Origin: Octopus sinensis
Lineage: Eukaryota
Assembly (NCBI RefSeq): GCF_006345805.1
Contig: NC_042999.1
Span: 97,774,001-97,838,000, forward strand
DNA length: 64,000 nucleotides
Reading direction: 5' to 3'
Position 1 is the stretch's first letter; each line of letters begins with the position of its first letter. Shown here one piece after another: positions 5,686 to 61,005 of the stretch. The notes below the pieces were generated by a model. That model ran no database searches. It saw only the letters and a list, made by a program, of their open reading frames with translations, and was not told the DNA's origin. The position numbers and the translations under genes were made by a program.

Positions 5686-6030
5686 GTATTCCGCCGAGGT
5701 CGACTTTGCCTTTCACCCTTTCGGGGTCGAAAAGATAAGTACCAGGTGAACACTGGGGTCTATGTAATCGACACATCCTCACTTCTCTCAAGCTGCCCTT
5801 GTGGCAAAACTTTGAAATAATTATGAATGTAAAGTTGTTGATTGGCAGAATTGAGAAAGAATCGAACAAAAGAAAAAAAACCTTCCGGCTCTTTTCTTTC
5901 GGATTTCAAATCCCGCCATAGCCAACTTTATCTTTCATCTCTACAGGGTGTAAAGAACTAAGAACCGACAAGCACTGGGGTCGATTTCATCCTCGAAATT
6001 CAGGCCTTGTACCAATATTAGAAACAATCG
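5686..6030 (+). mobile_element. Two tandem partial SINE family A copies
   Basis: GCCGAGGTCGACTTTGCCTTTCACCCTTTCGGGGTCGA near 5692-5730; second diverged copy about 5838-6030 ending CAGGCCTTGTACCAATATTAGAAAC. Confidence 0.75.
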
Positions 6031-15605: not shown

Positions 15606-15640
<35 letters not shown>

Positions 15641-16589
15641 TGTTTCTTTATTAGCCACACAGGGCTGCACACAGATAGAACAAATTACAAGGTAGAGCTT
15701 TTCTTTTGAAGGGTTTTAAAAAAAAAAAAAAAGGAAGGGGGAGGTTTCGATCAAAAGGGATCGTAAAAGGAGAGAAAGAGGACAAAAAAAGGGGGGGGTT
15801 AAAAAAAAAAAAAAGGGGGAGAGGAAAAAAAAAATTTCAATAGGGATCGTTATCACAGAAATGTCAATATGAAGTGTAAAGGGGAGGACAGGTGAGGTTT
15901 ACCCGTGGAAAGAAAAGCCTACGGAAAAGACCCGGTAACCTCGGTCAATGAATGAAGTACATTTTATATTTCTTTTTTTTTTTTTTTTTTTTTTTTGCAA
16001 ATAAGCAACTCTCTGTTTTCGATTTCTGGGTTCATAGGACTATGCTCAAGGTGGCTTCGTCATTCATACGTGCCATTCTTGCTACATTCACCCATCTTTT
16101 TTTAAAACATTCGCTAGACAAAACTTGCCTCTCTACTCTCACTTTCCTTTTCAAGTGGTACTTGAAGAAGTTGATGAGAGATTGACCAGAGAGGAAAGTG
16201 TTTGTCTCCAATCCTTTCAGACGCGTCCACCAATACATTCTTTCGCCATAGCCACAAGGATGATGAAAATAGCTCTTCCTTCCCGTTTGAAGGAAGGAGG
16301 CGTGACAATATTGACGATAGACTCAGCTGATAAACCGACTCGTCCCACACGTGACAGCAGTTGTTCGACATAACCCACAGGTCGGAAATTGTGTGGACAC
16401 TGAACGAGTGCGTGCAGAACGGTTTCGTCGCTCTGACCGCATCTCGGGCAGGTCGGCCCCGTGTTTCTCGAGCCGTGTCTGTAGAGCTTATCCCGAACGG
16501 GTAGCGCTTCTCGGTAGCACTGCCAGGCCAGGGATCTCTGGAAGTTGTCCATGGGCCCTGGCCCGAAAGTCGTCCCGAACAGGCGGGTC

Positions 16590-16590
<1 letters not shown>
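15641..16590 (-). mobile_element. Tx1/L1-clade LINE 3' end (zf-RVT plus 3' UTR) inserted in (GATA)n
   Basis: LAWQCYREALPVRDKLYRHG...CPRCGQSDETVLHALVQCP zinc knuckle; ORF ends near 16032; about 390-nt UTR with AATAAA; GATA arrays on both sides (15607-15640 and 16591-16682). Confidence 0.9.
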
Positions 16591-16682
<92 letters not shown>

Positions 16683-17647
16683 CGAGTCCATAGTATCAAT
16701 ATAGAGTGAAACCGGAAGCGGTGGAAACATACGTAAACTTCCGGTGTTCAGTCTTGATATGTTAATCCTCAAAGTGTTTTCAAGTGATGAGAGTTGTGTT
16801 AAGCCGGTAATTCGTCATTAGAGTCAACACTGAGACATCCAGTTGCTAGCATACTCCTATACATATACACTTTAGGAGAGGTCCACATTATCGATGTAGT
16901 TGAGACTGGAAGTGGTGGGAAAATATATTAACAAACTAAGAGAGCTCAGTCTATGCATATTTTTCCTTGAAGCGGATTGATGTGGTGGAGCTAAGAAGAA
17001 TTAATCCGGTATTTCGTTCATTAGGTTCTACCTGGAGTAATAGCTTTTCTGTAGTGAAACATCGATACCGTGGAGCCATAAGATGTGGGGTTGCTGTGAA
17101 CGCCTTAAACAAATAATACGGCACTTCTTGTTAGTAGGGTAAAGTAAATTTTGTCATTTAGTAGGATAGTGTTTGGCGATATATATTAGTATTAGAGGAA
17201 TGTACTGAAGGACTAAATTAACATGAACGATTAAATAAATAGCATACATTGCTTTGAGAGCAAACGAGGCCGACATGCATTTATAATCGTTGACTATACC
17301 TATCATATTATTTGGAACAATAACGTGATCTGTTCTCAATATCGTAGTACTAAATATCACATGATGTATGAAGGGGAAATACCATCGATTAGATCGATTT
17401 TTCAACACTTGTGAAAAGAGAGTGAGAGAATTAAGCGATTAGAAAATTATAAAGTGTGATGACCCATGAAGTAATAAAAAAAATGATTGTTGGTATAAAT
17501 GTAATATTAACCCTTTATGATATTATTATTTTGATTCGGTTCATGAGTTCTAGTTAGGGAAATATATAAGGAGGTTTGGTTGGAGAGTGTACAGTAAAAA
17601 CAAGGAAGGGTAGGAGAAATCACGGAGGCAATATTACGGTGCAGATA

Positions 17648-17862: not shown

Positions 17863-18699
17863 TACGGTGTATAAAATATACATTGTAGTCGCAGTCCACT
17901 GAATATAATTGGTTCAAATAGTCCCAGGCAGAAACACAGTCCAATGACTGTTTACAAGGCTTATTAGTAAAGTAAGAAAAGTTTTAAGTGAAAAATGGGA
18001 AGTGATTGCAAAGAAACTAGAGGAAATGGAAGAGTCAATATTGATGAAAAAGAAATATCGATGTTATGGGTGTTAGAGAGAGAATTGAAATGAGGAAAGA
18101 TTAGAAAGGAATCGAGGATGAGGAAAATAAGACGATGGATCGTGATAGTAATTAAGTCTACGAGTGGATAAATAGGTTTACATAATCAGTGTGTGAGTAG
18201 ATGTCCCAACTCCCAGTATGATTTCACTCTCTAAACTAAAAGCAAAAGATATACTGCTACTAAAAGTAAAGTTAAAACATTAAATAGAACTTTTAAAAAT
18301 ATGTCCTCAAGATATTGGAGTCTTCCAGTTCCAAGTATCTCGAAACTGTTTACCGTTCGGATGCACTCCAACACATTTGAAGAAATGGTTGCTAGAATAC
18401 ACAACTCAACATAGCCAGAAAATCTTTCACGCCTTGTATTTTTTCAATGTATCTTATTTTGATTATTGTGCGCTTTATGGTTGCTTTTTATATTTATTTC
18501 CGTGCAAAAATGTGTGCGTATACATATGTCCATATGCTTGCATCTGTATGTGCATGCGCGTGTGTGCGTGTATGTGTGTGTGTTTGTGTGCTTTTACAAT
18601 GCTTAATATATCCTTCCATATACTGTATTACATCTCTAACCCATTCCTTCTTAATTTGTAAACGATCTTGTCTCTCATTCTTGCGGAATCAAAAAAAAA

Positions 18700-18813
18700 A
18701 AAGTGTCAGTCAAGCACTGGGATCGATATAATCGACTAGCCCTCTCCTCCATAACTTCAAGCCTTCTACCTATAATAGAAAGAATTATTATTATTATTAT
18801 TATTAGTAGTAGT

Positions 18814-18862
<49 letters not shown>

Positions 18863-19341
18863 AATTTTGGGGGAGGAGACTAGTCAGTTACCTCGACCCC
18901 AGTGCTTCACTAGTACTTAATTTAACGACATCGGCGGAATTTGAACTTAGAACGTAAAGCCGGACGAAATACCCATTTCTTTATTACCCACAAGGGGCTA
19001 AACACAGAGGGGACAAACAAGGACAGACATAGGTATTAAGTCGATTACATCGACCCCAGTGCGTGCTAGCGATTCTACCAGCTTGCCGCCTTATTAATAG
19101 TAATAATAATAATCCTTTCTACTGGAGGCACAAGGTCTCAAATTTGATGGGTGGGGACAAGTCGATTATATCGACCCCAGTGTTACACTGGGTTTTGATT
19201 TATCGACTCCAAAAGGATAAAAGGCAAAGTCGACTTTGGCCTAATTTGAACTCAGAACGTAATTCGAACTCAGACGAAGTACGGCGAAGCACTTTGTCCA
19301 GCGCGCTGAAGATTCTGCCAGCTCGCCTTTATTATTATTAT

Positions 19342-46786: not shown

Positions 46787-46925
46787 TATGTTTCTTTATT
46801 AGCCACACAGGGCTGAACACAGAGGGGACAAATTACAAAGTATAGATTTTCTTTTGAGGAAGAGAAAAGGCGGGGTAGATTTTCGATAAAAAGGGATCGT
46901 AAAAAAAAGAAAAAAGAAAAGAAAA
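46787..46925 (-). mobile_element. Short 3'-terminal copy of the Tx1-like LINE
   Basis: TGTTTCTTTATTAGCCACACAGGGCTGAACACAGA...TTTTCTTTTGA...AAAAGGGATCGTAAAA is nearly identical to 15641-15770. Confidence 0.85.
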
Positions 46926-47569: not shown

Positions 47570-48423
47570 AAGGCGGCGTGCTGGCAGAAACGTTAGCGCG
47601 CCGGGCGAAATGCTTAGCGATATTTCGTCTGCCATTACGTTCTGAGTTCAAATTTCGCCGAGGTCGACTTTACCTTTCATCCTTTCGGGGTCGATTAAAT
47701 AAGTATCAGTTACGCACTGGGGTTGATATATTCGGTTTAATCCGTTTGTTTGTCTCTTCTGTATTTAGTCCCTTGTAGGTAGTAAAGAAATAGGTATTTC
47801 GTCTACTGCTACGTTCTGAGTTCAAATTCCGCCGAGGTCGACTTTGCCTTTTATCTTTTCGGAGTCGATAAATTAAGTACCATTGAAACACTGAGGTCGA
47901 TATAATCGAATAGTCCCCTTCCCCCAAATTTCAGGCCTTGTGCCTATAGTAGAAAGGATTAAAACTGATAGATAGATAGATAGATAGATAGCACAGAAGT
48001 TTGAAAGGAGAGGAAAAGTCGATTATAAGGACCCCAGTACTTTACTGGTACTCTATTTTATTGACCCTGAAAAAATAAAAGGCAAAACTGACCTCCGGGA
48101 TTTGGAGAGCAAAAATCGCAATGCATTTTTTTTTGTTTGTTTTGTTTTTAGTTTTTTGGCGTTCTAACGAGTCTGGCAATTCACCACCGAAACAACAACA
48201 ATAACAATAACAATGGTTTCTGACGTATGCATAAAAGGCCAGCAGCTTTGAGGGAAAGAGGTTATTCGATACCATTGACCGTAGCACTTGACTGGATCTT
48301 TATTTCATTGACCCAAAATATGGGAGGTAAAGTTGAGATTTAAACTTAGAAAGTAAAGAACCGGAATAAATTCCACAAGGCACTTCATCGACAGCTCTAA
48401 CCATTCTGTCAATTCACTGCCCT

Positions 48424-58155: not shown

Positions 58156-58255
58156 NNNNNNNNNNNNNNNNNNNNNNNNNNNNNNNNNNNNNNNNNNNNN
58201 NNNNNNNNNNNNNNNNNNNNNNNNNNNNNNNNNNNNNNNNNNNNNNNNNNNNNNN
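58156..58255. other. Assembly gap (100 N)
   Basis: Run of exactly 100 N, a standard placeholder for a gap of unknown size. Confidence 0.99.
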
Positions 58256-60277: not shown

Positions 60278-61005
60278 ACAGAATCGTTTATATGACGAAC
60301 AAAATGCTTTGCGACACTTGGTCTGTCTTTACGTACCGAGTTCGAATTCCGCCGCAGTCGACTTCGCATTTTAGGCTTTAAGGTGGATAAATTGAGTAGC
60401 AGTTGAGCACTGGGCTCTATTCAACCGATTATTCCTTAATTTATCGACCCCGAAAGGATGAAAAGCAAAGTCGACCTCGGCGGAATTTGAACTCAGAACG
60501 TAGCGGCAGACGAAATACCTATTTATATACAAGTCCTTTGTATATATATATACAAAGGACTAAACACACAGAGAACAAACAAGGACAGACAGACGGATTA
60601 AGTCGATTACATCGACCCCAGTGCGTAACTGGTACTTATTTAATCGACCCCGAAAGGATGAAAGGCTAAGTCGACCTCGGTGGAATTTGAACTCAGAACG
60701 TAACGGCAGACGAAATACGGCTACGCATTTCGCCCGGCGTGCTAACGTTTCTGCCAGCTCGCCACCTTTAAAGCAGTCATTATTATCATGATTCCCATGA
60801 AGTACTGTGACTTAACAAAACTGCTAGAGCGTAAACGAAAAGGCCTTACGGTATTTGTTCCGCCTCTTTAGTTTCTGAGCTCAAATCTCATTCAAGCCAA
60901 CCTTGCTTTTTATCTTTCTGGAGTCGATAAAATAAAGTAATGTTTAAATATTAAAGTGGTTATATAATCGACAGTTTCCTTCCTCCATATTGTCCTGCCT
61001 TGTTT
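60278..61005. mobile_element. SINE family A cluster (+ 60278-60425; minus dimer 60435-60770; + 60815-61005)
   Basis: Direct alignment to the other family A copies. Confidence 0.82.

Follow-up and report, generated by a model that had tools for sequence, protein, structure and literature searches.

A hairpin-bearing 3'-terminal module shared by an octopus SINE and a group of L1/Tx1-like LINEs

We analysed a window of 64,000 nucleotides of Octopus sinensis DNA (assembly GCF_006345805.1, contig NC_042999.1, positions 97,774,001 to 97,838,000 of the forward strand) in which the tail of a short interspersed element (SINE) matches the 3' end of long interspersed elements (LINEs). Coordinates are window positions, and loci retrieved from the genome are cited by their L numbers. 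The elements carrying the shared block, and the SINE unit adjoining one of them, were the following.

18975..19017, minus strand: SINE tail block of type t1, which resembles a LINE 3' end and holds a GCCC-CUUGU-GGGU hairpin and a AAUAAAGAAAU trailer, matching 46791-46832 at 38 of 42 positions
18975..19090, minus strand: SINE unit 1, of type t1 with an internal deletion; its 30-nt head (19061-19090) is joined at GCACGC/ACTGGGG to body and tail
18862..18974, minus strand: second SINE unit, 5'-truncated at GGTATTTCG inside the head, internally deleted and bearing a different tail, ...CCCCCAAAATTCTA
15640..16590, minus strand: 5'-truncated copy of LINE subfamily A, with the C-terminal part of open reading frame 2 (ORF2) including a zf-RVT motif, a 3' untranslated region (UTR) of about 400 nt and the terminus ...GGCTAATAAAGAAACAT
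15640..15684, minus strand: terminal block of this LINE-A copy
46788..46925, minus strand: 3' fragment of about 140 nt of LINE subfamily B, the type nearest the SINE tail, with no ATCT repeats after it

When read on the plus strand as written, 18976-19017 and 46791-46832 were identical at 38 of 42 positions, which bears out the preliminary description of this locus. A degenerate pattern fitting both blocks matched only these two sites in the window and gave a mean of 0.00 matches in 100 dinucleotide-preserving shuffles, and a chance origin of the match was rejected on this basis. The further match that had been placed at 15641, in the LINE copy with the zf-RVT motif, was real, but it starts 2 nt away, at 15643; in register this third block was identical to the SINE block at 34 of 42 positions and to the 46791 block at 38 of 42. 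All three elements (18976, 46791, 15643) lie on the minus strand, and the block forms a 3' end only as its reverse complement, ...TTTGTCCCCTCTGTGTTTAGCCCCTTGTGGGTAATAAAGAAAT, so the strand on which the tail had been read needed correction. When consensus sequences were compared, the SINE t1 tail was nearest to LINE type B (37 of 42), followed by types E, C and A. Allowing a 3-nt gap extended the similarity between t1 and the LINE consensus to about 50 nt; it ended at the start of the SINE body.

The SINE, its tails and its arrays

The block had been presented as the end of the SINE. It is indeed the terminus of a SINE subfamily with monomers that bear target-site duplications (TSDs), but in the copy at 18975 it is internal, because a 5'-truncated second SINE unit follows it toward lower coordinates. 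SINE monomers terminated at AAAGAAAT(A), and TSDs of 10-20 bp, with a median of 16, were found in 14 of the 31 monomers examined. The exact 28-nt t1 tail occurred at least 47,957 times in the genome (reversed control, 0). The SINE body preceded this tail in 41 of 44 cases checked, and the remaining three were decayed or truncated SINE copies. The monomer ends, the TSDs and the body-preceded tails show the block to be a genuine 3' tail of the SINE. The majority consensus of 18 full units was 230 nt long: box-like motifs mark its head, its body reads ...GGTCGACTTTGCCTTTCATCCTTTCGGGGTCGATAAATTAAGTACCAG...CACTGGGGTCGAT.TAATCGAC, and the tail completes the unit. With this length, at least 47,957 tails and TSDs of 10-20 bp, the element has the features of a short non-coding SINE of high copy number. 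In four loci (L118, L128, L129 and L104), 1 to 4 extra bases (A, AT or AGGT) lay between AAAGAAAT and the TSD. In tandem arrays the following unit begins with these same bases, AGGT, a hint that the source copies are array members.

The head carries motifs (GAGTTCAAATTCC) that we take to be box-like and a GGCGG/CCGCC end complementarity, both assessed by eye against box consensus sequences, and it may have originated from a transfer RNA (tRNA). ARAGORN detected no tRNA in SINE locus L040, and Rfam gave no tRNA match in SINE locus L092. The L092 search did return mir-297, mir-568 and mir-1277 matches (293-478 and 738-811), which were below the gathering score, lay on TA/TG simple repeats and were rejected as low-complexity artefacts. 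The central region of the SINE may resemble the CORE domain.

The same SINE body was found with at least two other tails, t2 and t3, both ending in (ATT)n. Units with these tails lie at 47793-47990, 18690-18805 and 5690-5830 of the window and at L053, L064, L093 and other loci, and their ends, a CUUGU-loop hairpin with flipped stem pairs and then (ATT)n, resemble the 3' end of one LINE type, type D (...CAGCCCTTGTGGCCAATAAAAAAGAATTG(ATT)n). The sequence flanking SINE insertions (n=34) followed the motif A[T/G][A/G]TAT, most commonly ATATAT, with A at 31, T/G at 29, A/G at 33, T at 29, A at 27 and T at 22 of the 34 sites in successive positions. A TSD start of G(G/A)TAT, seen in 8 of 9 cases, was discarded since that sample was biased by the query, whereas the set of 34 is less so.

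Tandem arrangement was common. The remaining t1 units of the window, and the simple repeat that lies past the composite SINE, were the following.

47572..47791, plus strand: second t1 SINE unit, followed by a truncated t2-tailed unit at 47793 and then (ATAG)n
about 60521..60766, minus strand: third t1 SINE unit, with its hairpin broken by (TA)n and a truncated unit next to it at 60519
18806..18861, minus strand: (CTA)n simple repeat past the composite SINE

Each of the three t1 tails in the window ran straight into a second SINE unit starting at GGTATTTCG, a site within the SINE head, and 14,290 of the 47,957 exact t1 tails in the genome (30%) were followed by AGGTATTTCG. Arrays of two or three units inside a single TSD were found at L046 and L048, and a mixed dimer, a t1 unit followed by a unit with another tail, lay inside one TSD at L042. 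The simplest reading of these dimers is that a t1 element was inserted at GGTAT within a SINE already in place and that the 5' junction was resolved by homology; they may instead have come from retrotransposition of read-through multimer transcripts. Head-to-tail arrays reached at least seven exact tails spaced about 185 nt apart (examples at L046, L048, L049 and C1:8970294-8971812). At L050, L089, L102 and L125, t1 tails were followed by near-complete SINE heads beginning around AGAAACGTTAGC, in the A-box region of the head, which may be a second preferred landing site. The deletion junction GCACGC/ACTGGGG of unit 1 recurred at L042, L043 and L050. The exact junction string of that unit occurred once in the genome, which indicates that the deletion form is rare or recurrent, and a sizeable subfamily of short-form composites was therefore rejected.

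The LINE: terminus, lineage and target sites

The genome was searched with a 950-nt segment of LINE-A, 40 of the 1,719 candidates were scored, and 30 loci were fetched. All 30 matched the entire 950 nt with 88-96% identity and ended at the identical terminus, ...AATAAAGAAACAT. Behind it stood ATCTATCT with at most one mismatch in 26 loci and ATCT-type repeats with small indels in the other 4. The exact LINE 28-mer tail occurred 4,754 times in the genome, and the reversed pattern was absent. Because all 30 loci end there, the 42-nt block is the true 3' end of the LINE, as had been supposed. Sequence was shared among long LINE copies over about 6.2 kb; an estimate of 5.05 kb for the full length was discarded since it rested on a truncated copy. 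The 3' UTR of the window's LINE-A copy (15640-16590) holds an internal A-run.

Six LINE types were distinguished by their 3' ends: A, B, C, E and F, which are followed by (ATCT)n, and D, which was followed by (ATT)n in 12 of 12 copies. The reverse transcriptase (RT) regions of types A and D were 75% identical (355 of 472 positions). The copies examined at the outset were full of frameshifts, whereas a protein search, for which the ORF2 query gave 74,266 genome candidates at first look, recovered many copies of types A, D and E with a stop-free ORF2 of 1105-1200 amino acids (L133-L144, L147, L150-L154 and L157-L158). Families with such open frames may have been active recently. LINE-A and LINE-B ends (n=29 each) had median divergences from the consensus of 5.9% and 8.2%, and t1 SINE units met by chance in LINE loci (n=10) had one of 9.2%. 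On these small samples, the activity periods of SINE t1 and LINE-B overlap.

The distribution of the module among these types bears on the direction of transfer. Its presence in LINE types A to F, compared with its place in the SINE as one of several alternative tails, favours transfer from LINE to SINE, and we conclude that the SINE tail was taken from this LINE lineage. That the LINE lineage instead took its terminus from the more abundant SINE is highly improbable. Exact tails are about tenfold more numerous in the SINE (47,957 versus 4,754), and recombination between LINEs and SINEs has been discussed as possible (PMC5786205). Yet all six LINE types have the module, including D with its different microsatellite and its 75% ORF2 identity to A; the module varies among the alternative tails on a single SINE body; and the similarity stops where that body starts.

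The preliminary description had placed the LINE in the Tx1/L1 clade. Pfam searches with pieces of the LINE reading frames identified Exo_endo_phos (PF03372, 9.9e-17), RVT_1 (PF00078, 2.3e-31) and zf-RVT (PF13966, 4.2e-07), and a CX2CX4HX4C knuckle was present in the ORF1 pieces; ORF2 thus combines an APE endonuclease, an RT and a C-terminal zinc-binding motif, which is the architecture of the Tx1 clade and the L1 group. Nearly all of the 120 homologues listed carry PF03372, PF00078 and PF13966. Against PDB sequences, the RT piece scored best with human L1 ORF2p (131 bits, 4.7e-37) and gave 77 bits with R2 proteins, a comparison that is weak by itself since PDB holds no RTE, CR1 or Jockey RT. 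The sole informative name among the homologues listed was that of an alligator protein, "transposon TX1 uncharacterized 149 kDa protein" (P0106). It matched the LINE RT at 259 bits and 37% identity and an intact type D ORF2 at 33% over 667 amino acids, and it scored 170 bits against L1 ORF2p. A protein atlas search returned generic RVT_1 clusters only, which were uninformative on clade. For Octopus vulgaris, a repeat survey counts 13 L1-Tx1 families with 421 insertions among the recently active LINEs and names no other L1-like class there (PMC13282606). By architecture and RT scores, the LINE is assigned to the L1 group. Within that group it is most likely Tx1-like, as the proxies of RT scores, the P0106 name and the O. 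vulgaris class listing suggest, so the part of the earlier placement that specifies Tx1 rather than L1 proper stands as likely only.

The LINE was also found to insert in a restricted set of sites. The corresponding features of the window were the following.

15606..15639, minus strand: (ATCT)n array abutting the 3' end of the LINE-A copy
16591..16682, minus strand: (ATCT)n array abutting the 5' end of the truncated LINE-A copy
16217-16747, minus strand: zf-RVT-like open reading frame of the LINE-A copy

(ATCT)n lay both before and after each of four long LINE copies and likewise on both sides of the truncated copies L001, L002 and L031. In the genome, 3,437 of the 4,754 exact LINE tails (72%) were followed by ATCTATCT, and 14 of 41 sampled tails stood in AT-rich sites without ATCT repeats after them; the flank motif of the sample was ATCTAT (n=41). 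More than one LINE copy lay within about 4 kb at 6 of the 30 loci. This insertion pattern is that of a microsatellite-targeting element, with (ATCT)n as the target, or (ATT)n for type D, and target-specific insertion is a trait of many Tx1 members; microsatellite targeting is known for Tx1-clade Kibi, Koshi and crocodilian families, and (TC)n, (TTC)n and (TTCC)n are among the targets of some Tx1 families (PMC4494074). Tandem LINE copies separated by only short (ATCT)n were seen at L002, L003, L009, L019, L023, L025, L034, L036 and L077, and several 5' truncations fell at one site, CTATAGGGG, with apparent microhomology to the repeat. At one locus, L161 (G000:C10:31630864-31630945), a LINE tail (...GGCTAATAAAGAAAT) was joined to a SINE head at GAAAT/GCTTAGC, the single such match in the genome.

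The hairpin and the candidate mobiliser

In the shared module, a stem of 4 bp closes a loop of CUUGU or CUGUGU, and an A-rich trailer (AAUAAAGAAA) follows; versions of the module were present in the six LINE 3'-end types and the three SINE tails. The hairpin reads AGCC-CUGUGU-GGCU in LINE types A, B, E and F and GCC-CUUGU-GGC in type D. In SINE t1 it reads GCCC-CUUGU-GGGU, with the variants ACCC...GGGU and GCCC...GGGC; t2 has AGGC-CUUGU-GCCU, and t3 has UGGC-CUUGU-GCCA or UGCC-CUUGU-GGCA. Among 27 distinct natural tails, which were chosen and related to one another as described below, 85.2% of the aligned stem cells were paired, compared to 63.5% in shuffles (0 of 500 as high), and the covariation score was 0.568, compared to 0.215 in shuffles (0 of 500) and at most 0.199 in slid registers. 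Both-sided changes were found at three of the four stem pairs. Pair 12-20 was CG in 17 rows and GC in 9, and pair 11-21 was GC in 9, CG in 6, GU in 2, UG in 2 and unpaired in 8. Five LINE rows with a 6-nt loop were shifted by one column in this alignment; placed in their proper register, they paired at 4 of 4 positions (A, B, E, F) or 3 of 4 (C). The stem-loop that the preliminary description had proposed is thus supported by the compensatory changes of its stem, but not by folding energy.

The block is the 3'-terminal module of an L1/Tx1-like LINE group, and we consider it rather probable that it serves as the handle by which a Tx1-like RT would engage the SINE RNA. A B/E-like LINE would have been the source of the module in the SINE, with template switching or recombination as the probable route. 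The hairpin would be bound by the ORF2 protein of a Tx1-like element, whose reverse transcription would start at a nicked target, immediately behind AAAGAAAU, and leave duplications of 10-20 bp. The SINE would land at (G/T)(G/A)TAT sites, including one in its own head, where insertion would build the tandem and mixed dimers. A Tx1-like family is likely the driver of the SINE, most likely a sister LINE family outside those sampled.

Stringent SINE/LINE pairs usually share the terminal repeat as well. Here, a homologous 3' terminus lay at the very end of both elements (38 of 42 positions in the window, 37 of 42 in the consensus), and the stem-loop was conserved with compensatory changes, in rows that were pre-selected and related; the same repeat did not follow the shared tail. 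Several results weigh against the reading given above. Only 3 of the 47,957 SINE tails were followed by ATCTATCT, versus 72% of LINE tails, and LINE copies were flanked by (ATCT)n on both sides whereas SINE copies were not; two of the three exceptions, L131 and L132, do lie inside ATCT arrays. Genome searches gave 0 matches for a LINE with the exact hairpin of the SINE (GCCCCTTGTGGG) behind the conserved LINE 3' UTR block, and 0 for an A-, B- or C-type LINE tail abutting the SINE GGTATTTCG site; no LINE was found at that site among 95 occurrences of it in about 450 kb. The minimum free energies of the last 45-60 nt of LINE A, B and C and of the SINE, -4.9 to -8.1 kcal/mol, corresponded to z scores of -0.5 to +2.1 versus shuffles, with a stem of only 3-4 bp, and thermodynamic support for the hairpin was rejected because the energies were no better than those of shuffled sequences. 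In addition, the covariation rows were related sequences that had been pre-selected for at least 3 of 4 pairs, with five single-copy variants and one mis-picked site dropped.

These results bear most directly on the LINE families of the window itself. Because (ATCT)n arrays are their usual setting (72% of tails) and hardly ever that of the SINE, they are unlikely to mobilise the SINE and are probably not its driver. Of the mobilisation by a Tx1/L1-clade LINE that had been proposed for this SINE, the shared terminus and hairpin are retained, and a role of the local families is improbable. It might be argued that the local (ATCT)n-bound LINEs do move the SINE and that landing differs because the target is set by pairing of the RNA 3' extension, (AUCU)n in the LINE and none in the SINE. 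We regard this as quite unlikely. The flank motifs of the two elements agree in part (A at +1, TAT at +4 to +6), L131 and L132 are rare SINE copies inside (ATCT)n arrays, 14 of the 41 LINE tails stood in AT-rich sites without ATCT repeats, and families A and E include copies with an intact ORF2. Against this, target choice in the Tx1 clade has been attributed mainly to the endonuclease (PMC4494074), and 3 of 47,957 is very low if the endonuclease were shared.

A second possibility, unlikely though less so than the preceding one, is that the tail is a relic: a Tx1-like 3' end would have been gained once by template switching, and another LINE, for example of RTE, CR1 or Dong-R4, would now copy the SINE independently of the hairpin. 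The SINE's lack of the LINE's (ATCT)n fits this proposal, as does the absence of a matching LINE partner from the genome searches for the hairpin and the head-site junction. RTE, CR1 and Dong-R4 are, moreover, listed as recently active in O. vulgaris (PMC13282606), and RTE activity in octopus has been documented (PMC9115989). On the other hand, the end of the SINE is exact, at AAAGAAAT(A), in tens of thousands of copies, as is expected of a recognised 3' end, and t2 and t3 share (ATT)n with LINE type D. All three SINE tails also keep the loop with compensated stems, which would imply selection on the hairpin in the SINE itself. A further and more tentative proposal, somewhat less probable than recognition of the t1 tail by a Tx1-like RT, is that octopod Tx1-like LINEs are of a stringent type reading a CUUGU-loop hairpin, that the dominant SINE superfamily has repeatedly swapped its t1-t3 tails between such partners, and that its expansion was driven in this way.

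Relation to known SINE/LINE pairs

In animals, the SINE relations known for the L1/Tx1 group are based on poly(A), as with mammalian L1, or on the target, as with Tx1-Mar/SINEU, and tail mimicry is not among them. The system described here is one of tail-sharing SINE/LINE partners in which the host is an animal and the LINEs are L1/Tx1-like and bound to microsatellites, and the shared hairpin tail points to that group as the partner of octopus SINEs. If the tails have indeed been swapped between Tx1-like partners, site-specific LINEs of that group would have driven the great expansion of octopus SINEs; capture of a SINE through its tail by the L1/Tx1 group would then be known from an animal for the first time, with self-targeting of the head building SINE arrays. 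The stem and CUUGU loop provide a concrete RNA element that can be mutated, and copies with an intact ORF2 are candidates for retrotransposition assays.

Of the 58 SINE/LINE pairs tabulated by Ohshima (2013, PMC3747384), most involve CR1 and RTE, and the L1-clade cases are only those of maize, sorghum and Chlamydomonas. As in the eel UnaSINE1/UnaL2 pair and other CR1, L2 and RTE pairs (PMC3747384), the last 42-50 nt are homologous in the SINE and the LINE, a stem-loop with a conserved loop and a compensated stem lies near the end, and copies have precise 3' ends and TSDs. Unlike in those pairs, the octopus partner is L1/Tx1-like, the terminal microsatellite of the LINE is not shared, and an exactly matching LINE was not found. 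The maize and sorghum SINEs with a monocot L1 lineage and the Chlamydomonas pair SINEX-3_CR/L1-1_CR likewise have an L1-group 3' hairpin common to SINEs, with compensatory stem mutations (PMC3747384, PMC3472496). These plant and algal pairs have poly(A) ends and green hosts, whereas the octopus pair has an animal host and a LINE in (ATCT)n or (ATT)n. [quoted passage not shown]

Dependence of a SINE on target-specific Tx1-clade LINEs has also been proposed for crocodilian SINEU and Tx1-Mar (Kojima 2015, PMC4494074). There the link is a shared target, the Mariner transposon, and no LINE with the 3' part of SINEU-1 was found; in the octopus the link is the shared tail, and the target is not shared. 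The head of the octopus SINE also differs from that of SINEU in not being derived from a small nuclear RNA.

The tRNA-derived or CORE-type octopus SINEs OR1, OR2 and OK (Ohshima and Okada 1994, as cited in PMC4758252 and PMC4824008) agree with the present element in host group and size class, and the available parts of these two citing papers mention no LINE partner for them. SINEs make up 11.6% of the O. vulgaris genome (PMC13282606) and about 40% of octopus repeat content (PMC8967140). The literature searched names no LINE partner for octopus SINEs, and our search of it, which did not reach the entries of Repbase, Dfam and SINEBase, found no octopus or cephalopod SINE described as sharing a tail with a Tx1 or L1 LINE. 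Tx1 goes unmentioned in the available parts of Kojima (2018, PMC5786205) and of the SINEBase paper (PMC3531059), and the octopus LINE paper PMC9115989 concerns RTE and Dong elements. Within the window, a run of 100 N, an assembly gap or a withheld stretch, occupies positions 58156-58255.
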